Of a stretch of 64,000 nucleotides of DNA, positions 2,613 to 35,325 are shown one piece after another. The position numbers and the translations under genes were made by a program. The notes beneath the pieces were generated by a model. It saw only the letters and a program-made list of their open reading frames with translations, ran no database searches and had not been told where the DNA came from. Every line of letters begins with the position of its first letter. Position 1 is the first letter of the stretch. Source of the DNA: a virus (taxonomy: Duplodnaviria; Caudoviricetes); IMG/VR virus record IMGVR_UViG_3300037467_001298, positions 4,174-68,173 of that record, one strand, 5' to 3'.

Positions 2613-3113
2613 ATGAAAAATGATTTTATAATTCTTATTGGTTCTGATGGAAGTGGTAAATCAACAATAGCCGAGGCATTATCTAATGAACTTGGCTATC
2701 CTGTTGAACACCATGGACCTGTTAAATCATACCAAGAAGGAAAAGATGAATATTTTAAAAACATTCTTGATATTGAGTATTCAGTTATCAAAGATCGTTT
2801 CCATGAAGGTGAAAAAATATATGCTCCAATTTATCGTGGATACGAGGCAGATTATTTTGGTGAACTTGAATATTTATTACAATTAAAATTTAATCCTTTG
2901 CTTGTTTTAATTAGACCACCATTTAAAGTTATTGAACAGAGGTTAGAAGAACGTGGTGAGGATTTTGTAAAACAAGAACATTGGTTTTATTGTTATTTAA
3001 AACTAAATGACATCTATAATCAGTCTAATCTTCCAAAAATAACTATTGATACAAGTGTATATACTGCTGAAGAAAATGTTAAAAAAATAATCAATGCTTT
3101 AGGTTTACATTAA
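2613..3113 (+). CDS. P-loop deoxynucleoside monophosphate kinase (thymidylate-kinase-like)
   Basis: Walker A GSDGSGKST, DRFHEGEKIY (DR motif), lid RLEERGE; lies just upstream of the TS homolog. Confidence 0.8.
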   Translation: MKNDFIILIGSDGSGKSTIAEALSNELGYPVEHHGPVKSYQEGKDEYFKNILDIEYSVIKDRFHEGEKIYAPIYRGYEADYFGELEYLLQLKFNPLLVLIRPPFKVIEQRLEERGEDFVKQEHWFYCYLKLNDIYNQSNLPKITIDTSVYTAEENVKKIINALGLH

Positions 3114-3436: not shown

Positions 3437-4468
3437 ATGTTTATTATTGAAGGAGAATCATTTGAGGAAGTCTATAAAAAATCAATTATAGAAATTCTTA
3501 AAAATGGTGATGTAGTTGCTCCTCGCGGTTCAGCAACATTTGAATTAGCACCTGCAACTATTGTAATTAAAAACGCTAGAAAATTTTTAACAATGCCAAA
3601 GTTAAGAAAAGGTAATTATACTTTTCAATTAGCAGAAGCATTATGGATGTTACGAGGTTCAAACGACCTTGAAGAAATCGCTCATTATAATAAGGTATGG
3701 CGTAACTTTGAAGATGAAGACGACCCAGGAATTTTAAATGGCGCTTACGGTGAAAGACTTCGTGATTGGGATATGGGTGTAGACCAATTTATTGAGGTTT
3801 ATAATAAATTGAAAAAAGATCCTTATTCACGTCAAGCAGTTGCTATGATTTGGGATCCTGTTAGAGATAATGCCATTCATGAGAATGGGAATTACTCTAA
3901 AGATATCCCTTGTACAAATTACTTCAATTTCCAAATTCGTAATGGTAAACTAAATATGTGGACTGTAATGAGAAGTAATGATTTACACAAAGGGTCTATA
4001 TATGATATTCCAAACTTTATTATTTTCCAACATATTATTGCAGGTTGGTTGGGTGTTGAAGTTGGAAAATATACGCACTCTGCTGCCTCACTTCACATTT
4101 ATGAATCTGATGTAGAAAATTTTATTGATATTTATAATGATAAAGATGATACAGTTGTTTATGATGGTGAAGATTATGGTGACCCAAGAGTTCCACTTTC
4201 TGAATTTAATTTTGTAATGTCTACTATTTCTGTTATTGAATATTCAACAAGACAGGTATTAGATAAAGAAACATTTGATGATTATTTAGAAACTTTATTA
4301 AATGTTATTAGCGATATTAAAAACACTTGGTGGAGATCTGTTGCTGCACAAATTGCTATGTATAATTATAGAAAATTAGGTGCCACTGAAGAAGAATTTA
4401 AGAAATTCTTACCTTTTATTACTAATGAATATAGAAAAAATGTTGAAAAATGGAGGAGTTTAGTATGA
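3437..4468 (+). CDS. thymidylate synthase homolog, predicted dCMP hydroxymethylase-type
   Basis: AEALWML, YGERL, SRQAV, catalytic DIPC, RSNDLHKGSIYD with Asp at the N177-equivalent position, SLHIY. Confidence 0.85.
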   Translation: MFIIEGESFEEVYKKSIIEILKNGDVVAPRGSATFELAPATIVIKNARKFLTMPKLRKGNYTFQLAEALWMLRGSNDLEEIAHYNKVWRNFEDEDDPGILNGAYGERLRDWDMGVDQFIEVYNKLKKDPYSRQAVAMIWDPVRDNAIHENGNYSKDIPCTNYFNFQIRNGKLNMWTVMRSNDLHKGSIYDIPNFIIFQHIIAGWLGVEVGKYTHSAASLHIYESDVENFIDIYNDKDDTVVYDGEDYGDPRVPLSEFNFVMSTISVIEYSTRQVLDKETFDDYLETLLNVISDIKNTWWRSVAAQIAMYNYRKLGATEEEFKKFLPFITNEYRKNVEKWRSLV

Positions 4469-4731: not shown

Positions 4732-5949
4732 ATGAAGGTACTTGGAGCATTTATTTTTATGGGTTCTGCAACCATTGGCGTAATGAATAATGGTGTAAAG
4801 CCCAACAGAATTTTGGAATTATCAGATGGAATGACACAAGATAATGCTATGCACTTTGTCCATAACTATCCTGAAATTCCTGTTATTGAACCTGCTGTAT
4901 GGGAAAACGATGAATATTTAGAAGAACTTCGTAAAGAGGAATTCGATTTACTGTACGGAAATCCTCCATGTTCGGGATTAAGTTTAGGTGTTCGTGGTGG
5001 GCAATCTCATGAAAAAGGCCCCAACTGTCACCAATATCGCTATATGGAAATTATTAAAAAAGTACAACCTAAAGCATTTATGTATGAGAATGCTCCTACG
5101 TTGATTAGTACAGGAAAACCAATCTTAAATGATTTTATTAAAGGTCTTCCTAATTATAATTTCACTATTATTCGTGAATTTGGTTGCTATCATAATGTTG
5201 CTATGAAGCGTCAAAGAACATTCTTCATTGGATGGCGTAAAGACGTATTTGAAAAAGTTCCTACGCTTCACATGAGTAAAACAGAAAAACCTACAACCGT
5301 TCGTGATATCTTAGGAGATCTTTTCGATGTGCCTGTTGGTCACTCTAATGTATTAAATCACGAGTTAATCCCAGGTCGTCCGTATCAAGACGTAGAATTT
5401 GTTTTTCCTGATGTTCCTTATGTTAAAGGTGGAGAATATACTGTAAACTGGGTAATCTGTAATGAGTATGAAAAGTATGAGCCGCTATTAAAAGAAAAAA
5501 CTAAAAAAGCATTAAAAACTCAATTATTTAAACAAAGAAATGGTTTAGGTTATTGGGATAAATCTTCTCAACGTCCGAATCCTGATAAACAAGCACCATC
5601 AATGACTGGATATGCAAGTTTCATCCATCCTATTCATCACCGTCAATTTACTGTTCGTGAGTACGCTCGTTTAATGGGATATCCCGATACATTTGAAATT
5701 CTTCCGCATAAGGAAGTTGTTCGTCATATGGCTCAAGGAGTACCTGCTCGTTATTTTGAATGGGCATCAGGTGAAGTGCTTGCTGCGTTGCGTGGACAAA
5801 GACATTCTCATCAACAGTTTGAAGATACTCGAGTTATATTCCAACATCATACAAAAGAATTGATGACTGAATTCACAACTGAAGAGTTCTTAAATACATT
5901 AAAAATTGCAGAAGTAAAAAATGAAAAACAACAGAAACTAACGGTTTAA
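4732..5949 (+). CDS. DNA (cytosine-C5) methyltransferase homolog with degenerate motifs I and X
   Basis: Motif IV GNPPCSGLS, VI YENAP, VIII MKRQRTFFIG, IX RQFTVREYARLMGYPD. Motif I reads FIFMGS instead of FxGxG; motif X reads MAQGVP instead of IGNAV. Confidence 0.85.
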   Translation: MKVLGAFIFMGSATIGVMNNGVKPNRILELSDGMTQDNAMHFVHNYPEIPVIEPAVWENDEYLEELRKEEFDLLYGNPPCSGLSLGVRGGQSHEKGPNCHQYRYMEIIKKVQPKAFMYENAPTLISTGKPILNDFIKGLPNYNFTIIREFGCYHNVAMKRQRTFFIGWRKDVFEKVPTLHMSKTEKPTTVRDILGDLFDVPVGHSNVLNHELIPGRPYQDVEFVFPDVPYVKGGEYTVNWVICNEYEKYEPLLKEKTKKALKTQLFKQRNGLGYWDKSSQRPNPDKQAPSMTGYASFIHPIHHRQFTVREYARLMGYPDTFEILPHKEVVRHMAQGVPARYFEWASGEVLAALRGQRHSHQQFEDTRVIFQHHTKELMTEFTTEEFLNTLKIAEVKNEKQQKLTV

Positions 5950-7105: not shown

Positions 7106-9016
7106 GTGAGTGAAAAACGCGACCAAATAAAGGCACTTACAACGAGAGAACAGTGCCGTGATAAACTTCCAACATGGTTTGGTTCTCGTGAAAATTATCT
7201 TCATGGCTTCCGTGAAGTTTTAGGGAATGCGGTTGATGAAGTTATTAATAACTATAAAAAAGGTATTATAACAATTAAACTTGAAGATGATATGCAAACA
7301 ATTTCAGTATCAGATACAGGAAGGGGAATTCCAATTGACGGTACCACTGACGGTAAGCCTAACTATATTTTACTTTTTGAAACTTTATTTGCTGGAACAA
7401 ACTACGATAACAACGAAAATGGAAAGATTACGGTGGGCACTAATGGAGTCGGTACAACTGTGCTTAATCATACTTCTTGCCTCTTTGAAGTAACATCCTT
7501 CCGAAACGGTAAAAAATCAAAATTAACTTATATAGACGGTGGAAGCAACCAAGGTCTGACTACTGAGACGTGCAAGGACACTTTACACGGTTCTATCTTC
7601 AAATTCAGACTAGATCCTGAAGTTTATACATCTGTTATATATCAGAAGGAAGAAATTGTTGCTATTATAAAACACGTTGCTGCAACTTCAAATCAAATTA
7701 CCTTTAATTTTGATTTTAAAGGAGAACGGGAGACATTTAATTACAATTCACTGTCAGATTACTTCCTAGAAGTAGCCACTGGCCTCACATCTAAGCCGAT
7801 TGTAGGACCTGAAGTTGAATATGACCGTGAAGATGAATTAAATAAAATCGGTATTTTATTTGCTACTGCAAGTGACCCAATTCAAGAATCATTCCTTAAC
7901 TTTAACTGGTTACCTAATAAAGGCTCAATTCATACAGGAATTATTAACGGTGTTAGGTCATTCATTAATAAGGAAGCGCAAGAACAGAAACTAATTGATA
8001 AAAAATCAAATATAACACCCACTGATGTAGAGGATTCAGTAAGTTATGTTTGTTCCTTCCTTTCAACTAATGTTGAATATGCGAACCAAACAAAACTGTC
8101 AACTGATAAAAAATTATACCGTTCATTAGTTAATGAATATGTACAAAGTTTGTTGGAAGCATTCAAGGCTGAACAACCTAAGGAATTTGATAAATTCCTA
8201 AAACATATTGTTCAAGTTAATAAATTCAATAATCGTAATACTGCTGCTAAACAAGCACTAAAAAAGAAATTAAATGAAAGAGCTGATACTTTAACAAACC
8301 GTGTTGAAAAACTTGTTGAGTGTGATAAACATGGTCCTAATGCTGAATTATTTATTGCCGAAGGTGATTCTGCTTTAGGTTCAATCGTTCAGGCCCGTGA
8401 CAGTTTATATCAGGCCGCATATCCATTGAGAGGTAAAATCCTTAACTGTTTAAAAGCCGATTATTTAAAAATATTTGACAATAAGGTTGTTATGGATTTA
8501 ATTAAAGTTATTGGCACAGGAGTTATCGCTGATAAAAAACATAAGGATATTGAAACTTTTGAAATTACTCGTTCTAATTATGGAAAGTATATTATATCAA
8601 CTGATGCCGATGCAGATGGTCAACAAATCTGTTGCTTATTAATAACATTCTTCTATCGTTTAATGAGACCTTTACTTGAACAAGGTATGGTTTATGTTGC
8701 AAAGACACCATTATATGAAGTAAAACTTGAGGATGATTCAATGATTTATTACTTCAGTGAAAAGGAAAAAGATGAAAAACTTCCAAAAGTAAAAGGCAAA
8801 TATGTTATTGCTCGTTGTAAAGGATTAGGTGAACTTGAAGCCGAAACAATGGCATACACTGCAATGGATAAGGATACGCGTGTTCTTGAACGTGTAACTG
8901 TAAATAATGCTGAAGCAATGGTTGCTGCTGTTGAAAAATTCATGGGTGCAGATGTACATGATAGGAAAGAATATATTGAAGAAAATCTTTATAAATATAT
9001 TGCGGCGGTGGATTAA
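7106..9016 (+). CDS. gyrB: type IIA topoisomerase subunit B (GyrB/ParE family)
   Basis: GHKL ATPase EVLGNAVDE, DTGRGIP, GTNGVG; TOPRIM AEGDSA, PLRGKILN, STDADADG; RCKGLGE. GTG start at 7106 follows GGAGGAG. Confidence 0.93.
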   Translation: MSEKRDQIKALTTREQCRDKLPTWFGSRENYLHGFREVLGNAVDEVINNYKKGIITIKLEDDMQTISVSDTGRGIPIDGTTDGKPNYILLFETLFAGTNYDNNENGKITVGTNGVGTTVLNHTSCLFEVTSFRNGKKSKLTYIDGGSNQGLTTETCKDTLHGSIFKFRLDPEVYTSVIYQKEEIVAIIKHVAATSNQITFNFDFKGERETFNYNSLSDYFLEVATGLTSKPIVGPEVEYDREDELNKIGILFATASDPIQESFLNFNWLPNKGSIHTGIINGVRSFINKEAQEQKLIDKKSNITPTDVEDSVSYVCSFLSTNVEYANQTKLSTDKKLYRSLVNEYVQSLLEAFKAEQPKEFDKFLKHIVQVNKFNNRNTAAKQALKKKLNERADTLTNRVEKLVECDKHGPNAELFIAEGDSALGSIVQARDSLYQAAYPLRGKILNCLKADYLKIFDNKVVMDLIKVIGTGVIADKKHKDIETFEITRSNYGKYIISTDADADGQQICCLLITFFYRLMRPLLEQGMVYVAKTPLYEVKLEDDSMIYYFSEKEKDEKLPKVKGKYVIARCKGLGELEAETMAYTAMDKDTRVLERVTVNNAEAMVAAVEKFMGADVHDRKEYIEENLYKYIAAVD

Positions 9017-9109
9017 ATGTTAAAAGAAATTTTATTAGGAACAGTTTCGGGAGTTATAACATTATTTATTATTTTTTGTGGCCTAATGTATTTTATCTTT
9101 GGTTTATAA
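9017..9109 (+). CDS. 30 aa single-TM micro-protein
   Basis: MLKEILLGTVSGVITLFIIFCGLMYFIFGL, directly abutting the gyrB stop. Confidence 0.5.
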   Translation: MLKEILLGTVSGVITLFIIFCGLMYFIFGL

Positions 9110-17342: not shown

Positions 17343-17444
17343 TGCGATATAACGAACGGATGGTAGGGATTAACGAATCTCTACCATTTGTCGTATTTTG
17401 TCGATATTTGTTTAGAAAAGAGAATGTTTTTAAGACAAATCCTA

Positions 17445-17473
17445 TTTACATAATTTTCATATGATGTTATTAT
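17445..17473 (+). promoter_or_regulatory. sigmaA-type promoter
   Basis: TTTACA-N17-TATTAT, extended TG. Confidence 0.55.
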
Positions 17474-17554
17474 ATACATATACAAATTAATAAAAAAATA
17501 TTTAAAAAAGCGTTTAAAAGTGATAAAATATGTATATAATAATAAAAATATGAA

Positions 17555-17983
17555 ATGAGGATGAATGTAATGGCTGTTCAAACAGATTTAAGTATTATTA
17601 AGGAAATTATTGAAATGACTTGCGAAGAGAAAGTAAAACTAATATTTGCTGAAAAACCAGGTTGGTTACTGATGAAAACAGCCGATAAAAATAAAGGAAT
17701 TGGTGCTATAAGATTAAATAAAAATTCATTTATTACTTTATATGTTGATACTAATGAAGGTTACTTATTAGAAGATAAAATTACTGAACTTGAAACATTT
17801 AAAGGAAAAATTATTGATATAAATTCAAAGGTAACTGGAAACTTTGTACAAAATAAAATTAAACTTTACAGTGAGGATGCTATTGAATTTGCTATTGAAC
17901 TTATAAATAAAGTATTTAATGAAGGTGCTGTATTTACAGGAAAAAGAATAAGAGTATCAAAAACCGAAACAAGCGTCGCCTAG
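17555..17983 (+). CDS. hypothetical monocistronic protein, possible DUF5655/YjbR-like fold
   Basis: C-terminal KIKLYSEDAIEFAIELINKVF pattern; own promoter and terminator. Confidence 0.65.
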   Translation: MRMNVMAVQTDLSIIKEIIEMTCEEKVKLIFAEKPGWLLMKTADKNKGIGAIRLNKNSFITLYVDTNEGYLLEDKITELETFKGKIIDINSKVTGNFVQNKIKLYSEDAIEFAIELINKVFNEGAVFTGKRIRVSKTETSVA

Positions 17984-17999
17984 GCGGCGTTTTTATTTT
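17972..17999 (+). terminator. intrinsic terminator
   Basis: GCGTCGCC/GGCGGCGT GC-rich stem with TTTTTATTTT. Confidence 0.75.
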
Positions 18000-18160
18000 C
18001 CCAATTATCGGAACAGTCCGACAATTTAATAGACAAGTAATTAATATATTTACTATTAGTATTAATATAATAATTCATTACATTCATTATTATAATGGAA
18101 AAAATAGTATCTGTAAACTGAAATTAAAAAATTTCTATTTTAAAATTAAAATATATTTGG

Positions 18161-18189
18161 TTTACATATAATTAAAAAGTATATATAAT
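18161..18189 (+). promoter_or_regulatory. sigmaA-type promoter of the kinase-phosphatase-nucleotidyltransferase-GT operon
   Basis: TTTACA-N17-TATAAT. Confidence 0.75.
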
Positions 18190-18216
18190 ATTGATATATT
18201 TAAATGGAGGTGTCAT

Positions 18217-19251
18217 ATGGGTAAAGTCAATATTTTAAAAGAGTTTAAAGGTGGAAGTATGGCAAGAACCTTTTTAGTCGATAAATATGGACAAAAATAT
18301 GTTAGGAAAATTGCGGCCAATGATAAAGATGGGTTAGGTATTGAAAAACTTTATAAGCAATGGAAATGGCAATTTGACTTTTGTAGAAATGATGAACCAG
18401 GAGTTATGCCTGATACTTCATTTTTTGTGTTTGGGAAGGACTCTGGTTACTATGATATGGAATATGTAGAACTTGGTACTTTTCTTGATTTATTACTTAA
18501 TGAGGAAGATATTGATGGAATGATTCTTCATGATATATTAAAAGCAGGGTCATTAATAGCAAAACCTGTAGATGAAGAACCTAAACATGATTATTTATTA
18601 GTTAATCATTTACAAAAAATGGTAAAAAGAACTCAATCACTACAACCTTATGAGTTTTACAAACATGATTCAATTGATATAAATGGAAAGTCATGTCAAA
18701 ATCTTCATAGAATATTAGAGTTTATTGTAAACGAACCTGGGCTAATTAAGTTATTATCACCTAAAAAATTATATAGGTCTCATGGTGATTTTACTTTCCA
18801 AAACATTCTTGCTGATGAATATGATTTGGTTGTAATAGACCCACGTGGTGAAGGTGCTGACTCAATTTATTATGATATTAGCAAACTTTATCAAAGTTGT
18901 CATGGTAAATATGATTTACTTTTTGATGGTAATTATAGAGTTTGGTCAGATGGTTATACTGATGTTATCAATTATGAGATACTTGATGGTGTAGAAAAAT
19001 TCAATGCTATTTATGATGAGCTTCGTGAACTAATACCTCAGTATTATGAAATTGAAGATGAGCATTGGGAATTAATTACAAAATTTTATGAGGCAAGTCA
19101 CTTCATTTCAATGACACCTTTTAGATTAAAAGAAAATGGAAATATAACAGCAGTCTGTTATGCAATTGGTATAGAATTATTAAATGAGGTAGTGGAGGAA
19201 TATTTAAATGTTAAATCTGAACTTAAAAAACAAGAAAGCATTACTATTTGA
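18217..19251 (+). CDS. APH/choline-kinase-fold small-molecule kinase
   Basis: Gly loop KGGSMART, VRK lysine, YDMEYV hinge, HGDFTFQNIL catalytic loop, IDPRG. Confidence 0.85.
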   Translation: MGKVNILKEFKGGSMARTFLVDKYGQKYVRKIAANDKDGLGIEKLYKQWKWQFDFCRNDEPGVMPDTSFFVFGKDSGYYDMEYVELGTFLDLLLNEEDIDGMILHDILKAGSLIAKPVDEEPKHDYLLVNHLQKMVKRTQSLQPYEFYKHDSIDINGKSCQNLHRILEFIVNEPGLIKLLSPKKLYRSHGDFTFQNILADEYDLVVIDPRGEGADSIYYDISKLYQSCHGKYDLLFDGNYRVWSDGYTDVINYEILDGVEKFNAIYDELRELIPQYYEIEDEHWELITKFYEASHFISMTPFRLKENGNITAVCYAIGIELLNEVVEEYLNVKSELKKQESITI

Positions 19252-19813
19252 TGTAGACGGTACTATCGCTGATACAATGCCAGCACATAATAAAGCATAT
19301 GAGTTAGCATTCCATTTAAACAATGTTCCTTTTGATATTGAACTTCATAAAACATATGCCCCTTTTGGTGGTAATGTATTAATGAGGGAAACTGTTGAAG
19401 CAATAGGTTATGGTGCTCAAGCGCATCAAATCATTAAGGATAAACAAGCATTATTGGGTTTTTGTTTAGATAGATTTATGAGACCCAATACTGAACTCAT
19501 TAATTTTATTAAACAAAATGTTGAGAAATATTATATTGCTTTTGTATCAAATGGTCGTAGAACAAGTATTCAACAAGTACTTGAAAAATTAGGTTTATTA
19601 TATTATGCTGATTATATTACAACATCTGATATTTTGGGCGCTGCGAAGCCCTCACCAGAAGCATATAATTATACAATGCTCATGTTAGGTGTTAATCCTG
19701 ATGAAGTAATTACATTTGAGGATAATGAGATTGGTATTACTGCTGCAACTCGTGCTAAAATAAAAGATATTATTAAAGTTAATACGGAGGATTTTAGATT
19801 TGAAAAACTTTAA
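19208..19813 (+). CDS. HAD-superfamily sugar phosphatase/mutase (beta-PGM-like)
   Basis: FDVDGTIADT, FVSNG, AKPSPEAY, FEDNEIG. Confidence 0.92.
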   Translation: MLNLNLKNKKALLFDVDGTIADTMPAHNKAYELAFHLNNVPFDIELHKTYAPFGGNVLMRETVEAIGYGAQAHQIIKDKQALLGFCLDRFMRPNTELINFIKQNVEKYYIAFVSNGRRTSIQQVLEKLGLLYYADYITTSDILGAAKPSPEAYNYTMLMLGVNPDEVITFEDNEIGITAATRAKIKDIIKVNTEDFRFEKL

Positions 19814-20546
19814 AGGTATTATACTCGCAGGTGGTAGAGGATCTCGCCTATCACCTATAACAGATGTATATAATAAATATTTATGTCCTGTTTATGATAA
19901 ACTCATGATAGAATATTCTATCCTATCATTAAAAGATGCAGGAATAACTGATATAGCAATTATTCTTGGTACAAAGTCTGCTGGTGAAACAATGGACTAT
20001 CTCAAATCAGGTAAAAAATATGGTGTTAAATTTACATATTTTTATCAGGATGAGCCGCTGGGAGTTCCGAATGCTCTGTATCAGGCTAAAGATTGGGCTG
20101 GACTAACTAACGTAGTTGTATTGTGCGCTGATAATATTATTTATGATAATTTAATGCCATTCTTAGAAATGTATAAAGGCGGAGGTTTTATTACAACTAA
20201 ATTCTTTAATGATAAAGAGGAACTAAAGAGATTCGCTGTGCTAGAGTTTGATGAAGATTTAAGTATTAATAAAATTGTAGAAAAACCTGAAAACCCTAAA
20301 TCCTCCCTAGCATTTTGTGGGATACAAATATACGATTTACAATTATGGTCAATTATTAAAGGACTGGAACCTTCTAGACGCGGTGAATATGAAATTGTGG
20401 ATGTATTAAATGAATATATTAATCGTAAAAAGTTTAGTTATGGAACATTAACCAAACAATGGTTCGACTGTGGCAATAAGGATGCTTTGTTTGAAGCACA
20501 ACAATATGCTTTCTTTAATTCGATTGAGGAGGCCCTAAACAAATGA
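19800..20546 (+). CDS. sugar-1-phosphate nucleotidyltransferase (RmlA/SpsI-like)
   Basis: GIILAGGRGSRLSPIT..NK, QDEPLG, ADNI, VEKP, PSRRGEYEIVD, WFDCG; TTG start. Confidence 0.92.
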   Translation: MKNFKGIILAGGRGSRLSPITDVYNKYLCPVYDKLMIEYSILSLKDAGITDIAIILGTKSAGETMDYLKSGKKYGVKFTYFYQDEPLGVPNALYQAKDWAGLTNVVVLCADNIIYDNLMPFLEMYKGGGFITTKFFNDKEELKRFAVLEFDEDLSINKIVEKPENPKSSLAFCGIQIYDLQLWSIIKGLEPSRRGEYEIVDVLNEYINRKKFSYGTLTKQWFDCGNKDALFEAQQYAFFNSIEEALNK

Positions 20547-21994
20547 CCTATCAAATTATTAATTCCCATAAAGACAACCCTAATAAAAAGAATATTATGT
20601 TATTCTTGCTCGAGAGAAATCTCGGCAAGAAAACTAATTTCTTGTCATATTCATATATACTTAATACTGTTAAAATTTTACAAAAAGATTTCAATGTTTT
20701 CCTCGTTGCCCGTTCATCAAGTTCAAGAGGCGCCTGGATAGAGGTAGCATTACAAACACCTATTTTGAAAGACTGTATACTTATTAATCTTGATGCTTCA
20801 GGAAGGTTTATGAGAGTTGAAACAGGCGAACAGGAGTTATATGATGATGATAAAGCCGCATACAATTATACTTATAAGTATATGGATACTTTGTTTACTA
20901 ACCTCATTCATGGTGAGCCATGGATATTTAATAATCTCGTTGGCACTATTTCTTCTGCTCTTTTTCTTGTATATGAAAGGAATCACGAAATTATACCATA
21001 CGATGAAAGAACTGAAAAACTCTCAGCAGGAGCCATGGAAACAGCCCGTAAACGACTTACAGGGGAACGTCAATTCTTCTCGTTCCGAATGATTAGTCAG
21101 AGATGTATGTATCCTTTATACTTCCTCACAAGACTTATGAGGGACTATCCAAATTTATGGCATTACTCATTCTGTCACGATACTAGCTCAATATGGTACC
21201 CATGGTCTGCTAAGGTAAATCCTCTTACAAAAAATGTTAAATGTTTTTACTTTGTAAATGATGATAGAGGACCTATGAGGGATTTTAAAGAATTCCCATC
21301 TGCGCAGATTCAAGATGCCTTTGGTAAAAAACAATTGACAAAGGATGAGTTAAATGATATTCTCAATAATAAAAAACATGATTTTATCTTTGGCGGAACT
21401 TTTCCTTATGATGTTAGTTACCGCTTGGCGGATTGGGTACGTTATTTTAATGACCTTAATTGTGATGCTACTATTCGTACTCAAACTGATGGTACTTCCA
21501 CTATTACTTGTACAGAGATTAAGGATCCACTCGAAACAAAGAAATTCAAAGGTAAAAAGATAAAAGATGAAAAGGCGTTAGATGTTATTAGAAGTATTTC
21601 TGTCAATAAGAATGTTAAACCTACTGTATCTCAACAAGAGTATCACGAGGAACAAAAGGATTATATGTTTACAATTATTTTAAAATGCTTTTATGGTAAG
21701 TATGATTCTTTAAACTTTAGGATTTATTCTTCATTAGCAAATGGCGTTATTCCTTTATTAGCTAATGACTATGATGTTGATTGCCTTCAAATTCCGTTAT
21801 TATTTAAACAACTATTAACGGTTAGAGATAATATTGATATTGAAGAAAAGATTGAATATTATAAAAATAACCCTGAAAAATATAAGGAACTATTTTGGGC
21901 ACTCTATAATCACTATGTAAAGCCTGAACACTATCAAAATGAGTGGTATGAAAAAGTGTTCAAAGAAAATTATTTTAATGAATTATATAAATAA
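20543..21994 (+). CDS. GT-B glycosyltransferase, T4 beta-glucosyltransferase-like (GT1)
   Basis: KKHDFIFGGTF resembles T4 BGT KTLDVIYGGSF; LNFRIYSSLANGVIPLLANDYD resembles ITLRVWETMASDAVMLIDEEFD; final helices IEEKIEYYKNNPEKYKEL. By-eye alignment. Confidence 0.65.
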   Translation: MTYQIINSHKDNPNKKNIMLFLLERNLGKKTNFLSYSYILNTVKILQKDFNVFLVARSSSSRGAWIEVALQTPILKDCILINLDASGRFMRVETGEQELYDDDKAAYNYTYKYMDTLFTNLIHGEPWIFNNLVGTISSALFLVYERNHEIIPYDERTEKLSAGAMETARKRLTGERQFFSFRMISQRCMYPLYFLTRLMRDYPNLWHYSFCHDTSSIWYPWSAKVNPLTKNVKCFYFVNDDRGPMRDFKEFPSAQIQDAFGKKQLTKDELNDILNNKKHDFIFGGTFPYDVSYRLADWVRYFNDLNCDATIRTQTDGTSTITCTEIKDPLETKKFKGKKIKDEKALDVIRSISVNKNVKPTVSQQEYHEEQKDYMFTIILKCFYGKYDSLNFRIYSSLANGVIPLLANDYDVDCLQIPLLFKQLLTVRDNIDIEEKIEYYKNNPEKYKELFWALYNHYVKPEHYQNEWYEKVFKENYFNELYK

Positions 21995-22010
21995 AAAGAA
22001 TTTTATATGG

Positions 22011-22039
22011 TTTACGAAAACACATTACATATATATAAT
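22011..22039 (+). promoter_or_regulatory. sigmaA-type promoter
   Basis: TTTACG-N17-TATAAT. Confidence 0.65.
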
Positions 22040-22082
22040 TGTAATGTGTTTTTTAATTTATTAATTGAATGGAGGTATTATT

Positions 22083-22739
22083 ATGAGCAGTTTGGAAAAA
22101 TATAATATTATTAAATCAGATGAGGAAACACCAGATGGGATAAGTGAAAAAACATTCGGTTATGTAGAAGGTAAAAAGGTTTTGATTAAAACAGATTATA
22201 GGCCGACTGAGATACTTGCAGAATACTTTGCATACAAATTAGGTGAAGCATTAGAAATTCCTGTTAACAAAGTCAAATTAATTGATTGTGGCACACTTTT
22301 AGGTTTAAAAAATAACCTGTGTTCAGTTCACTGGTGGGAAGAATGTTTTATTGATTCTGCAGATTATGTAGGAATTGAAGAGCAAAAAGATTTAGATATG
22401 ATGAAGTTCTTTGACGCTATAATTGGAAATGATGATAGGCACCATCATAATTATGGGTTTATAGATGATTGTATATTCTTAATTGACCACGGTCTATCAT
22501 ATCCTTGGAAAAGTTTTTATTCTGAAAACATTAATGACCTTCATCAAACATGGCATAAAGTACCTGAAATTACAAATAAATTTTTATCTTTAACAGAAGA
22601 TAATTTTAGAAAAATGTTAGAACTTCCAGATGATTTAGAACATAATATACCTGATGGAAAATTCAATAAAATTGTAGAAAGAATGTTTGAAGCACAAGAT
22701 ATTTTAAAGGAGGCAATAGCAAATGCAAACGCAGCCTAA
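22083..22739 (+). CDS. HipA-like / PI3K-like kinase
   Basis: VLIK, AEYFAYKLGEALEIP, DAIIGNDDRHHHNY, LIDHG; ATG 22083 after GGAGG. Confidence 0.8.
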   Translation: MSSLEKYNIIKSDEETPDGISEKTFGYVEGKKVLIKTDYRPTEILAEYFAYKLGEALEIPVNKVKLIDCGTLLGLKNNLCSVHWWEECFIDSADYVGIEEQKDLDMMKFFDAIIGNDDRHHHNYGFIDDCIFLIDHGLSYPWKSFYSENINDLHQTWHKVPEITNKFLSLTEDNFRKMLELPDDLEHNIPDGKFNKIVERMFEAQDILKEAIANANAA

Positions 22740-22749
22740 TAATATACCA

Positions 22750-22778
22750 TTTACAATTTTCATAATTTAATATATAAT
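22750..22778 (+). promoter_or_regulatory. sigmaA-type promoter
   Basis: TTTACA-N17-TATAAT. Confidence 0.7.
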
Positions 22779-22784
22779 TAAATT

Positions 22785-23513
22785 ATGGAGGTGTTTAATT
22801 TGGAATATGGGTTTATTTATATTACAACTAACAATATTAATAATAAAAAATATATTGGCAAATGTAAATATAAACCAGGTAGTAAAAATTACTTAGGTTC
22901 AGGCTTACATTTGAAACGTGCTATTAATAAATATGGAAAAGAAAACTTTTCAAGAGATATTATTGATACTGCTAAAAATGAAAATGAATTAAATAAAAAA
23001 GAAAAGTATTGGATTGATTTTTATAATGCTATACATTCTGATAATTTTTATAATATAGCAGAAGGTGGGCATGGTGGTAATACATTAGCTGGGAAAACAG
23101 AAGAGGAATTAAAACAATTTGGCGAAATTATAAGTAATGCAAATAAAGGAAGAAAATGGTCGGATGAAAGCAAACTTAATAGAAGTAAAGAAAGGAAAGG
23201 CAAATTTACAGGTAAAGACCATCATATGTTTGGTAAAAAACTTTCTGACGAACAAAAAAAGAAAATTAGTAATAAAGTAAAAGGTGGTAAGAATCCATCA
23301 GCAAAGAAAGTTTATATTTATAAAGGTAGTGAATTAATAAAAGTTTGTAATACTTTTGATGAGACAGTTCATTGGTTTTATAAACAATATCGTGCTTATT
23401 CTCTTACTACAAGTAATAAATTAATAAGAAATTTAAGAAAAAGTGGTGGTACTTGTATTAAAACAGGATTAAGTTTTAGTGATAAAAAATTAGGAGGTAT
23501 TAACAATGAGTAG
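22785..23513 (+). mobile_element. free-standing GIY-YIG homing endonuclease with NUMOD3-like repeats
   Basis: GFIY...KKYIG, YLGSG, ELNKKEKYWI, YNIAEGG, HHMFGKKLSDEQKKKIS. Confidence 0.88.
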
Positions 23514-24717
23514 GGTTGGCTTCGGGAAAATGGGCCGTTCAATATATTTTGATAGAAAAAAATGGAAAGAAAATGCGGGAAATAATGAAGCACCAATATT
23601 AATAAGTGCCATTGCAAAACTTCAACCTAATACTACTTACTATTTAATTGGTAAATCTGATTTCAGTAGGGTGTCAGATGATATTAGGAAAGAATGGTTT
23701 CCACATAATAATGTAATTGATTGTTGGAAAGATTTCAATCCTAAGCAACACGACCCAACAACATGGATTTGGGAACAGTTAAAAAATAAAAATTTAGATT
23801 ATTGTATAATTCACGGTGGGATGGCTTCTCTAAGTATACCAAATAAAATATATTGCTTAGATAGAAAAACAAAAAAACCTGACTACTCAAAACTAAGACA
23901 ACCTCTTGCATCACTTGTTAATTATTGCTCACCAATAACATATTTTTTAAATGAGTCAAAAATAGATTGGTTAACAATTACATCAGATGGAAGGTATATG
24001 CCTCTACCTGCTCGCGATTTAATTAATCCTGAGAAAATTAGTTTGGGTGTTAGAGAAGGTGTTGTAGAAATCGAACGAATGAAATCCTATGAGGACCAAG
24101 AAACAATGGTTAAGCATAAAGTAGATTTACGTTACGCTGCTGCCGAATTTCAATATTTACTTGATCCTAAATTCAGCACATTTAGGTATAACGAGGAAAA
24201 AACTCAAAAAGTTGGTTTATTCTTTCATCAATATGATAATAAAAAACGTGTAGCTGCAATTCAAGATATTATTGAGCAATTTGGTGAAGATGAAATTGCA
24301 GTATATGGAAAATGGGAATTAGCAGGTCATGATAAAAGGTATAAAGGTCCTGTGAACTTTGAAGAATTACAAGATATTTTACCTTCTGTTAAATATACTT
24401 TCTGCTATCCTATAATTCCTAATGACTTTTCAGGTAAATGGGTTGAAAGTGTTCGAGCTGGTATAATTCCGTTCTTCCATTCAACTTATGGTGATAGGAA
24501 AATAATGTCAAGATATGATAAATCATTTGAGTGGCTTTATGTTGATAATGGACAAGAAATGAAACAAAAGATAGAATATCTTGAACAAAATCCTACAGCG
24601 TATTATAGGATGAAAAATTTACTTATATCAACAGTTAGTCGTTTCCCTAAAAATGGCGCCTCATTTGTTAATGCAATAAACAAAGCAGTAAAAGACATGA
24701 AAGGTATGAGAAAATAA
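23506..24717 (+). CDS. GT-B glycosyltransferase, T4 beta-glucosyltransferase-like (GT2)
   Basis: N-terminal RVGFGKMG...NNEAPILISAI resembles BGT KIAIINMG...SSETIYLFKVI; YKGPVNFEEL, FSGKWVESVRAGIIPFF, LYVDNGQEMKQKIEYLEQNP resemble the BGT C-terminus. By-eye alignment. Confidence 0.65.
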   Translation: MSRVGFGKMGRSIYFDRKKWKENAGNNEAPILISAIAKLQPNTTYYLIGKSDFSRVSDDIRKEWFPHNNVIDCWKDFNPKQHDPTTWIWEQLKNKNLDYCIIHGGMASLSIPNKIYCLDRKTKKPDYSKLRQPLASLVNYCSPITYFLNESKIDWLTITSDGRYMPLPARDLINPEKISLGVREGVVEIERMKSYEDQETMVKHKVDLRYAAAEFQYLLDPKFSTFRYNEEKTQKVGLFFHQYDNKKRVAAIQDIIEQFGEDEIAVYGKWELAGHDKRYKGPVNFEELQDILPSVKYTFCYPIIPNDFSGKWVESVRAGIIPFFHSTYGDRKIMSRYDKSFEWLYVDNGQEMKQKIEYLEQNPTAYYRMKNLLISTVSRFPKNGASFVNAINKAVKDMKGMRK

Positions 24718-24869
24718 TGCAAACAGCAATAGCAACTCCAGAACCTGAAAATGATTATAATTTTTTTATGGTTGATGGTAAATTAATTAAAGTTGAAAAT
24801 ATTGAAAAATTTATTAATACTTTGGTTTACAACAATAAAAATTCTACGTATAATCACAATGTAAATTAA
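24717..24869 (+). CDS. possible 50 aa hypothetical protein
   Basis: TAATG coupling to GT2; 3' part overlaps the next promoter. Confidence 0.35.
   Translation: MQTAIATPEPENDYNFFMVDGKLIKVENIEKFINTLVYNNKNSTYNHNVN
24826..24854 (+). promoter_or_regulatory. sigmaA-type promoter
   Basis: TTTACA-N17-TATAAT. Confidence 0.75.
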
Positions 24870-24887
24870 AACGATGGAGGTTACAAA

Positions 24888-25109
24888 ATGAATGATTTAA
24901 ATATTTTGTTAGGTCAATCTTTTACTCACATGGTAGGATCTGAATCACAAGCAAAACGTGTGGTTGAGGATTATAAAGCCGAATATACAATTAAAAAGTC
25001 AACAATTGACAAAAAGGTTAAAAAAGGTATGGAATATTGGAAAGTAACTGTTGTTATTGACCATGTTTCTGAAAAGGATGCTTTCGGTATGTACTTTGAT
25101 GAGGTGTAG
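24888..25109 (+). CDS. hypothetical protein
   Basis: GGAGG RBS, 73 aa ORF. Confidence 0.75.
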   Translation: MNDLNILLGQSFTHMVGSESQAKRVVEDYKAEYTIKKSTIDKKVKKGMEYWKVTVVIDHVSEKDAFGMYFDEV

Positions 25110-25114
25110 AAAAA

Positions 25115-25810
25115 ATGACCTCTCAAATGATTGTAGATGAGCCTTATGGGTTCATCTACGTCACAGAAAATTTATTAAATGGTAAAAAGTATATTGGCCA
25201 ACATACTAATTTTAATGATAAGTATTTAGGTAGTGGTACAGTAATTAAAAAAGCAATAGGAAAGTATGGTAATAAAAACTTTAAAAGAAAAATCATATAT
25301 ATTGCTTATAACGAAAGTGAATTGAATTTTGCTGAAAAATTGTTTATCCGTTCAAGAAATGCTGTTAAAAGTAATATGTATTATAATATTGCTGAAGGTG
25401 GATTAGGTGGTAATTCTTGGGCAGGAAAAACAAATGAAGAAATTGAAATTATTAAATATAAAATAAGTGAAGGTATGAAAGGTAATAAAAATCCTGTATT
25501 TGGTAAAACAGGAATAAATGCTCCTTTCTTTGGAAAAACTTATACTCATACAAATGAGGCTAAACAAAAAATTGGAATAGCAAATAAAATTGCTCAACAA
25601 AAGAAAGTATTACTTGTTGATATTAAAGGCAATATAATTGAAATATTTCAATCTGTTGATGAAGTAAAGAAAGGAAACTGGAGGAAACAATTTCCAAAGC
25701 CAAATGGTATGGATTATGTTATGAACTGTTTGAGAAATAAGTTATTATTTCATAATCATTATTTAATTTACGAAGGTGATTATAATGAGTTCAAGTCAAA
25801 TGCGTTCTGA
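25115..25810 (+). mobile_element. second free-standing GIY-YIG homing endonuclease
   Basis: GFIY...KKYIG, YLGSG, ELNFAEKLFI, YNIAEGG, NPVFGK and HTNEAKQKI NUMOD3-like segments. Confidence 0.88.
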
Positions 25811-26190: not shown

Positions 26191-26709
26191 ATGAATAAAG
26201 TACGTGGATTTGAAGTTGCGAAAGGTTTTGAACAAAAAGGAATTAATTTACCAGCAAGACAAACAAAAAATGCTGCAGGTTATGATTTTGAAGCCGCTGA
26301 ATATACTACAATCCCTTCAATTTGGAAACAAGGTTTCAAATATATCTTCAATAAAATTTTTAGTGGCGGAAATGAAGTTGATGAAAAACTATTCAAACCA
26401 ACATTAGTTGCTACAGGAGTTAAATCTTATATGGGAACAGATGAAGTATTATATCTGTATAACCGTTCGTCAAATCCATTGAAAAAATTCTTATTGCTTG
26501 GAAATGGAGTGGGCGTTATTGATTCGGATTATTATGAGAACCCTGATAATGATGGTCATATCATGTTTCAGTTTATTAACTTTGGTATTCTTGATAAAAC
26601 TATTGCGCCAGGTGATAGAATAGGCCAAGGTGTATTCGCTCAATTTCTAAAAGCCGATAATGATACTGTAAATAAAGAACGTCAGGGTGGATTTGGAAGT
26701 ACTAATTAA
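26191..26709 (+). CDS. dut: trimeric dUTPase
   Basis: AGYDF, RSS, GVIDSDYY, PGDRIGQGVF, RQGGFGST motifs I-V. Confidence 0.95.
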   Translation: MNKVRGFEVAKGFEQKGINLPARQTKNAAGYDFEAAEYTTIPSIWKQGFKYIFNKIFSGGNEVDEKLFKPTLVATGVKSYMGTDEVLYLYNRSSNPLKKFLLLGNGVGVIDSDYYENPDNDGHIMFQFINFGILDKTIAPGDRIGQGVFAQFLKADNDTVNKERQGGFGSTN

Positions 26710-34971: not shown

Positions 34972-35325
34972 GTGGCTAATCGTCGTCGTAATGCTTTAGT
35001 TGTTCCAGGTGTTGACCAATACTTGAATCAATTTAAACTTGAAATTGCTAAGGAACTTGGTATTCAAGATTACGATAATATAGATAAAGGCGCTTTACCT
35101 GCTCGTGTACATGGTATGATTGGTGGTACAATGACTAAACGCTTGATTGAAATGGGACAACAGATGTTAGCTGGACAAGATACAACGCAGTCCAATTTGA
35201 AACCACAAGAATATGTTCAGCAAATGCAAGAAGAAATTACTGATGAGGCACAAAATGCTTATGCTAAAGCACCTGTTGTTCCTATTCCTGGTGAGATAGT
35301 TGAAACACAATCTACGCTGCATTAA
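34972..35325 (+). CDS. alpha/beta-type small acid-soluble spore protein with C-terminal extension
   Basis: NALVVPGVDQYLNQFKLEIAKELG...LPARVHGMIGGTMTKRLIEMGQQML SASP signature; GTG start. Confidence 0.9.
   Translation: MANRRRNALVVPGVDQYLNQFKLEIAKELGIQDYDNIDKGALPARVHGMIGGTMTKRLIEMGQQMLAGQDTTQSNLKPQEYVQQMQEEITDEAQNAYAKAPVVPIPGEIVETQSTLH

Follow-up and report, generated by a model that had tools for sequence, protein, structure and literature searches.

Sugar-coated cytosine is among the best-studied phage defenses against restriction enzymes and CRISPR. The known DNA glucosyltransferase families, namely GT63 (with the T4 β-glucosyltransferase, BGT; Pfam PF09198), GT72 (with the T4 α-glucosyltransferase, AGT; PF11440), and TAGT, are considered narrow and largely specific to T-even phages. 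T4 relies on host UDP-glucose. Here, we describe GT1, a 483-amino-acid (aa) protein encoded within 64 kb (hereafter, the window; positions 4,174 to 68,173) of the 68-kb, roughly 77% complete IMG/VR viral record IMGVR_UViG_3300037467_001298. GT1 is predicted to be a distant, enlarged relative of BGT that is coupled to a phage-made nucleoside diphosphate (NDP)-sugar, and it occurs in Bacillota-type and uncultured phages.

Pairs of α- and β-glucosyltransferases have been reported only in Tequatrovirus, and 288 of 753 glycosyltransferase (GT)-carrying phage genomes encode TAGT homologues without an α- or β-glucosyltransferase, with unknown first-step transferases being proposed (2026 T4 study, PMC13216743). 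Thymidylate synthase (TS) homologues of phages can produce 5-hydroxymethyl-dCMP (5hm-dCMP) or 5-hydroxy-dCMP (2026, PMC13326640). In the arabinosyl-5-hydroxycytosine (5hoC) pathway of RB69, DLP3, and HY126, a TS-made acceptor is combined with a kinase, HAD, and nucleotidyltransferase route to the donor and with several GT-B transferases acting on DNA (PMC13326640). The window system follows the same logic, and with the T-even phages it has in common a hydroxymethylase plus GT-B transferases. The T4 AGT family, to which gp306 and gp313 of phage G belong, likewise consists of GT-B DNA glycosyltransferases, as GT1 is predicted to be.

Relationship of GT1 to T4 β-glucosyltransferase

The GT1 reading frame is open along its full length, and the product was unannotated, as the original prediction (made from the sequence alone) had stated: nothing scored above the Pfam cutoff (Glyco_trans_1_2 stayed sub-threshold at 16.4 bits versus 25), no PHROGs or NCBIfam family matched, and neither GT1 nor its profile found a credible sequence match in the PDB. 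The sole PDB match, a tRNA isopentenyltransferase (E 0.01), was judged spurious. Because 38 full-length homologues exist in metagenomes (33-84% identity, many on contigs of 95-100 kb), all of them carrying no name or “hypothetical,” the gene is evidently real and under selection.

Structure prediction (predicted local distance difference test score, pLDDT, 89.7) gave GT1 a GT-B fold, with T4 BGT as the clear top match in two fold searches, and the model superposed less well on the other GT-B enzymes. BGT is shorter (351 aa) and only 13% identical. Against the single T4 BGT sequence, GT1 gave a weak alignment (E 0.004) that covered exactly the three motifs, located at residues 277-287, 361-371, and 390-411, that had been quoted earlier as resembling BGT. 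Profiles were then compared by hhalign: profile A3, in which GT1 was widened with distant representatives (58 sequences), aligned GT1 245-472 with BGT 154-348 of the BGT family profile A5 (25 sequences) at 97% probability (E 9.7e-11, 185 columns), and the GT1 alignment A1 gave 96% (E 2.3e-9) against the same A5. From the former comparison, the donor-binding domain of GT1 is judged homologous to that of BGT. In a global profile alignment (98.4%), GT1 16-480 was paired with BGT 1-351, ranges that match the structural alignment; the whole of GT1 is built like BGT, with an N domain that is larger by about 130 residues. The earlier claim of a BGT-like C-terminal domain thus stood for the donor domain but was too narrow, in that similarity spans all of GT1, and the description of a larger, divergent N-terminal domain was borne out. 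No relationship to T4 AGT was detected by hhalign (E 0.34), nor did GT1 match PF11440.

In the A3-A5 alignment, BGT G187-G188-S189-F190 corresponds to GT1 G284-G285-T286-F287, R195 to R294, and R269 to R393, all of which are conserved. Within A5, R191, R269, E272, and Asp100 are invariant and R195 is nearly so; we take Arg191, Arg195, and Arg269 of BGT to be UDP phosphate ligands, Glu272 to be a ribose-binding residue, and Asp100 to be the catalytic base of the N domain. As had also been noted, GT1 has neither a signal peptide nor a transmembrane segment, with a hydropathy maximum of 1.19 across 19-residue windows that lies below the transmembrane level.

Predicted donor operon and acceptor supply

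Upstream of GT1, a terminator-like hairpin is followed by a promoter-like site and then by four overlapping genes in the order kinase, HAD, NTP-transferase, and GT1 (Table 1). The ATG of GT1 overlaps the stop codon of the NTP-transferase gene (caaATGAcc), with GAGGAGG about 10 nucleotides (nt) upstream, and GT1 is translationally coupled to the kinase-HAD-RmlA-like operon. The kinase structure resembles fusions of APH and NTP_transferase domains (TM, a structural similarity score, about 0.8), and its sequence matches the C-terminal half of one such fusion (L004 in Table 2; E 6e-15); with the RB69 enzyme, it has the catalytic motif alone in common. The HAD protein scored 83 bits with the NCBIfam PGMB-YQAB subfamily model, under that model's cutoff. 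Best solved relatives of the nucleotidyltransferase are all glucose-1-phosphate thymidylyltransferases (RmlA), with the Bacillus anthracis RmlA 3hl3 at the top (E 1e-48). The NDP-heptose and the AfhE/AfhF UDP-arabinose routes follow this kinase-phosphatase-nucleotidyltransferase logic, but the record encodes no sugar-phosphate isomerase. Our best guess for the donor is a dTDP- or UDP-hexose, most simply glucose.

The acceptor would come from a TS homologue, the single TS-family gene of the record, whose best match is the CMP hydroxymethylase MilA. In E. coli ThyA numbering, N177D marks a cytosine substrate, L143D/E a nonmethyl product, and D169N a hydroxylase (PMC13326640). These positions were read from an alignment (A4) of the window TS homologue with T4 gp42, RB69 gp48, and the T4-type td. 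The window protein (Cys region KDIPC, RS motif MRSND...D) and T4 gp42 (SDFMC, MRSND...D) both read as cytosine hydroxymethylases, RB69 gp48, a proven 5hoC synthase (LEYPC, MRSQN), as a hydroxylase, and td (TLPPC, QRSVD...N) as a true thymidylate synthase. The catalytic Cys is present in the window protein, as are L143D and N177D, and D169 is kept, as in T4 gp42 and unlike in the RB69 5hoC synthase. Because it shares the T4 gp42 signature, the window TS homologue is predicted to be a dCMP hydroxymethylase that supplies a 5-hydroxymethylcytosine (5hmC) acceptor. A TET/JBP route to 5hmC has no gene in the record.

GT1 is located between DnaE and ligase, in a module for replication and nucleotide metabolism and away from the lysis and structural genes. 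The window encodes a DnaE-type polymerase, topoisomerase II, RecJ, ligase, a sigma factor, and a small acid-soluble spore protein (SASP). The host is a member of the Bacillota, because DnaE shares 55% identity with the enzyme of Geobacillus phage GR1 and 44-46% with the enzymes of ~90-kb Staphylococcus and Enterococcus siphoviruses, and it is probably a spore former, as the phage SASP gene indicates; the product of that gene is of the alpha/beta type.

Gene context in nine lineages

Viral and metagenome scans for related loci gave 2 and 3 loci, respectively, and nine lineages, each offering 9 kb or more of context, were counted in all (Table 2). Donor genes were found within 10 kb of the GT1 homologue in 6 of the 9 lineages, and a second GT (GT2-like, AGT-like, or other) was nearby in 8. 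An NTP-transferase gene lies immediately upstream of the GT1 homologue on the same strand in four cases (the window, L004, L010, and the P0047 contig). Also found near GT1 homologues across the lineages were TS homologues, dCMP deaminases, nucleotide kinases, TAGT proteins, and T4-type structural genes.

The donor module has been fused and rearranged inside one phage group. In L019 (11837-13453) and L020 (1938-3563), relatives with a GT1 of 66% identity, one fused gene downstream of GT1 stands in place of a kinase gene and a nucleotidyltransferase gene, and within the region fetched no HAD gene was recognized by the HAD model. The fused NTP-transferase and kinase that adjoins GT1 homologues in some lineages is the AfhE architecture of the RB69/HY126 pathway. 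AGT-family proteins adjoin GT1 homologues in L002, L004, and L010; the window's record holds no AGT-family gene.

Table 2. Gene arrangements around GT1 homologues in the nine lineages
Lineage	Members	Arrangement
1	window, L006, L018	kinase, HAD, NTP-transferase, GT1, HipA-like kinase, GT2
2	L019, L020	GT1, fused NTP-transferase+kinase, HipA-like kinase, GT2
3	L002, T4-like myovirus	GT1 homologue adjoining Pfam AGT protein (E 4e-13)
4	L004	NTP-transferase+kinase fusion, GT1 homologue, AGT-like protein (50% identity to that of L002), topoisomerase II
5	L009	HAD + kinase, GT1 homologue, kinase/UDG protein, dCMP deaminase, hmC-type TS
6	L010, 558-kb jumbo phage	AGT-like protein, GT1 paralogue, GT1 orthologue (40% identity) directly downstream of NTP-transferase+kinase fusion
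7	L016	GT1 homologue, GT2 homologue (E 1.5e-56), C5-methylase homologue, two TAGT proteins, T4-type RNase H
8	L021	TS, GT1 homologue, GT2 homologue, C5-methylase homologue
9	P0047 contig	HAD, fusion, GT1 homologue, three further GTs, C5-methylase homologue, TS

Cultured phages that share the module

Two cultured phages carry the donor module and a TS homologue and have no GT1. In Bacillus phage G, the donor trio gp309-311 is orthologous to that of the window (kinase gp311, 47% identity; nucleotidyltransferase gp309, 60%; HAD by the HAD model), and it adjoins an AGT-family gene annotated as an alpha-glucosyltransferase that is 53% identical to the GT1 partner in L002; phage G thus pairs the AGT family with the same kinase-HAD-RmlA trio. 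Its TS homologue is 42% identical to the window TS. These genes (gp309-313, gp319) correspond to L012:271-4693 and 8001-9047. The TS homologues of phage G, the window, and L009 have in common a C-terminal extension of roughly 100 aa and the hmC-type signature.

Enterococcus phage Planchet encodes an hmC-type TS, a small HAD, an NTP-transferase+kinase fusion, and a GT2 homologue, PLANC_61. The GT2 family is thus known without GT1 in cultured phages, and GT1 itself is found in none. Because an hmC-type TS, a GT2 homologue, and donor genes occur together, cultured phages of the Planchet type are predicted to carry glycosylated 5hmC. Two annotations of this phage look wrong: PLANC_62 (L017:7353-8984), labeled “Glycosyltransferase,” is a fusion of an NTP-transferase with an APH/EcKL kinase, and PLANC_63 (L017:7012-7356), labeled “Polynucleotide kinase,” is a small HAD phosphatase. 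For phage G and for Enterococcus phage Planchet/9183, the literature searched gave no account of modified DNA.

Proposed role of GT1 and alternatives

Taken with the operon coupling, the TS signature, and the recurrent linkage in independent lineages, the fold and the donor-domain homology support GT1 as a soluble GT-B DNA glycosyltransferase that acts on phage 5hmC DNA with an operon-made donor, probably providing a second or alternative glycosylation rather than the sole primary one; we put the probability of this reading at roughly 0.72. From the same evidence, we infer the DNA acceptor, the donor identity, the order of action, and the stereochemistry. In such a pathway, the TS homologue would make 5hm-dCMP, which kinases and the DnaE polymerase would place in DNA such that 5hmC replaces cytosine. 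The APH-fold kinase, the HAD phosphatase, and the RmlA-like nucleotidyltransferase would jointly make the NDP-sugar (a dTDP- or UDP-hexose, e.g., glucose), and GT1, translated in step with these donor enzymes, would move the sugar onto the modified base after replication, adding it either to a first sugar or, in a different linkage, to the remaining 5hmC.

The original prediction had cast GT1 as a DNA glycosyltransferase that uses the donor of the upstream genes, to be assayed on 5hmC DNA. As a prediction this is supported, but its detail is refined, since the downstream GT2 is closer to BGT than GT1 is, and GT1 may act on glycosyl-5hmC or on leftover 5hmC. GT2 keeps the ribose Glu, as E314, and its alignment with BGT begins at residue 85 and takes in the Asp100 position, in a register that is not secure. 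GT2- and AGT-like enzymes resemble the two known primary 5hmC transferases and occur without GT1 in cultured phages, and GT1 is almost always accompanied by one of them. It is because these partners are more canonical and occur alone, while GT1 accompanies them, that we favor GT1 as a second or alternative transferase and consider that it is probably not the sole primary one.

The converse order, with GT1 as the primary, base-proximal transferase on 5hmC and the GT2 or AGT-like partner adding a second sugar or the other anomer, is possible but considerably less probable. It stays live because GT1 is the gene that is translationally coupled to donor synthesis, and GT1 also sits directly downstream of the NTP-transferase gene on the same strand in four lineages; moreover, in T4, two primary enzymes act side by side (PMC13216743). 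However, GT2 and the AGT-like proteins resemble both known primary 5hmC transferases much more closely, such types occur without GT1 in Planchet and phage G, where the same donor module accompanies an hmC-type TS, and 8 of 9 GT1 contexts contain a GT2-type, AGT-type, or other GT as partner. That the acceptor base is instead 5hoC or 5-hydroxymethyluracil (hmU) seems improbable. For 5hoC, MilA-like best matches are also seen for phage 5hoC synthases (PMC13326640), and the window donor module shares its kinase/HAD/NTP-transferase logic with the RB69/HY126 pathway; yet D169N is missing (MRSND in the window versus MRSQN in RB69), and no sugar-phosphate isomerase, SIS domain, or arabinose-5-phosphate isomerase was found in the 68-kb record, at ~77% completeness. 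The 5hoC/arabinose reading, which PMC13326640 had prompted, was rejected on these two grounds. The TS residues speak likewise on hmU, in that position 177 is Asp (cytosine) and not Asn, even though hmU is the base that Bacillus phages classically use. Still less probable is a target other than DNA, such as a host teichoic acid, a phage protein, or a small molecule; several observations speak against it, from BGT as clear top match and the replication/nucleotide setting between DnaE and ligase to the missing signal peptide and transmembrane segment and the company of AGT, TAGT, TS homologues, dCMP deaminases, and nucleotide kinases across lineages.

Several results weigh against a second or alternative 5hmC glycosyltransferase role as we propose it. 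Two residues invariant in the BGT family are not conserved: R191 is replaced by D290, and E272 by S396 at a position that is variable across the wider GT1 family. A lost ribose-binding Glu would, speculatively, fit a deoxyribose-containing dTDP donor. The register of the GT1 N domain against BGT was inconsistent between global alignments, and since it is unstable, the counterpart of Asp100 was not confirmed and is not mapped onto GT1; D213 and D240, both nearly invariant in A3, may be candidate catalytic bases. PF09198 matched 0 of the 58 GT1-family members and is present in 42 of 42 BGT homologues; because no member matches this model, we set the GT1 family apart as a separate family that is related to GT63 and not a part of it. 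No GT1 homologue was found in 50,697 phage records (by tblastn of GT1 and two divergent family members and by megablast of the region), and the family appears to be known only from metagenomes so far. The hidden Markov models (HMMs) used for co-occurrence were partly trained on the same loci, and the lineages number nine in all; the matches in L009, L018, L019, L020, and L021 come from outside the training set. Lastly, the dCTPase and dNMP-kinase assignments (Table 1) are weak.

Downstream genes and other features

A HipA/protein-kinase-like protein is kept between GT1 and GT2, with syntenic counterparts at L006:11539-12306, L018:11529-12227, and L019:13564-14319, and it could phosphorylate a sugar or a modified base. 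Its assignment to the 5-HMUDK type of DNA base kinase was rejected, as 5-HMUDK is a P-loop kinase. After the kinase-like gene sits a GIY-YIG gene, which overlaps the start of GT2 by 8 nt; no such gene is at the corresponding site in L006/L007, and its absence from that site in L006 marks it as a mobile insertion outside the pathway. A second GIY-YIG/NUMOD3 homing endonuclease gene was also observed in the window.

The candidate dCTPase is syntenic in L006, and a trimeric Dut-fold protein is encoded further downstream. A C5-cytosine DNA-methylase homologue stands beside GT1/GT2 homologues in four lineages (the window, L016:3441-4718, L021:8387-9637, and the P0047 contig), with those of the window and L016 being 23% identical (E 5e-14). 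It may have another role in hypermodification, since cytosines that are predicted to be C5-substituted already would leave it little substrate.

Table 1. Coordinates of the features discussed, in window positions
Feature	Position	Strand	Evidence
Candidate dNMP kinase for modified nucleotide	2613-3113	+	Weak P-loop, dNK, and thymidylate-kinase matches
TS homologue, predicted dCMP hydroxymethylase	3437-4468	+	T4 gp42-type signature
C5-cytosine DNA-methylase homologue	4732-5949
Candidate dCTPase, all-alpha dUTPase_2/gp56-like, 130 aa	16764-17156	+	Weak: Pfam dUTPase_2 E 0.0012; pairwise T4 gp56 E 6e-4
Intrinsic-terminator-like hairpin closing the upstream unit	17971-17992	+	Sole terminator-like site in 17400-25200
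Promoter-like site TTTACA-17-TATAAT	18161-18189	+	Consensus scan, 11/12 matches; pattern match only
APH-fold kinase, 344 aa, predicted sugar/sugar phosphate C1 kinase	18217-19251	+	Structure match
HAD-IA sugar-phosphate phosphatase or mutase, beta-PGM/YqaB-like	19208-19813	+	Pfam Hydrolase E 3e-23
RmlA-like sugar-1-phosphate nucleotidylyltransferase, 248 aa, predicted NDP-sugar maker	19800-20546	+	Pfam NTP_transferase E 3e-45
GAGGAGG ribosome-binding site and ATGA start/stop overlap	20529-20546	+	Direct sequence reading
GT1, 483-aa GT-B glycosyltransferase, distant enlarged T4 BGT relative	20543-21994	+	Open reading frame, predicted structure, profile comparison
HipA/protein-kinase-like protein, 224 aa	22065-22739	+	Weak Pfam HipA_C match, phrog_3162
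GIY-YIG homing endonuclease	22785-23513	+	Pfam and PHROG homing-endonuclease matches
GT2, 403-aa second BGT-like glycosyltransferase	23506-24717	+	Closer to BGT than GT1
Second GIY-YIG/NUMOD3 homing endonuclease	25115-25810
Trimeric Dut-fold protein	26191-26709
Alpha/beta-type SASP	34972-35325		Pfam SASP E 2e-19

Implications

By its sequence, GT1 fails the GT63 model test, is without two donor ligands that are invariant in GT63, and belongs to a metagenome-only family tied to phage NDP-sugar synthesis. The array of L016, with GT1 and GT2 homologues followed by two TAGT proteins, offers concrete candidates for the unknown first-step transferases, and it bears on the solitary TAGT homologues as the GT1 and AGT pairs of L002, L004, and L010 bear on a pairing thought to be confined to Tequatrovirus. 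A bolder idea, which we advance tentatively and rate as rather unlikely, is that GT1 would found a GT-B class that leaves the base alone and extends a sugar set on 5hmC beforehand by a BGT- or AGT-like partner, drawing on a phage-made dTDP-sugar and not on a UDP-sugar, given its lost ribose-binding Glu; this would give disaccharide-5hmC DNA in phages of Gram-positive bacteria, and GT1 and GT2 together would explain the “missing” first-step enzymes in at least some TAGT phages. New DNA glycosyltransferases that use other donors or form other linkages would also be of use in 5hmC labeling. The literature searched held no report of glycosylated 5hmC in phages of spore-forming Firmicutes, for which this modification would now be indicated. 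Together, our comparisons suggest that the GT1 family extends the ancestry of BGT to large Bacillota siphoviruses, T4-like myoviruses, and a 558-kb jumbo phage from metagenomes.

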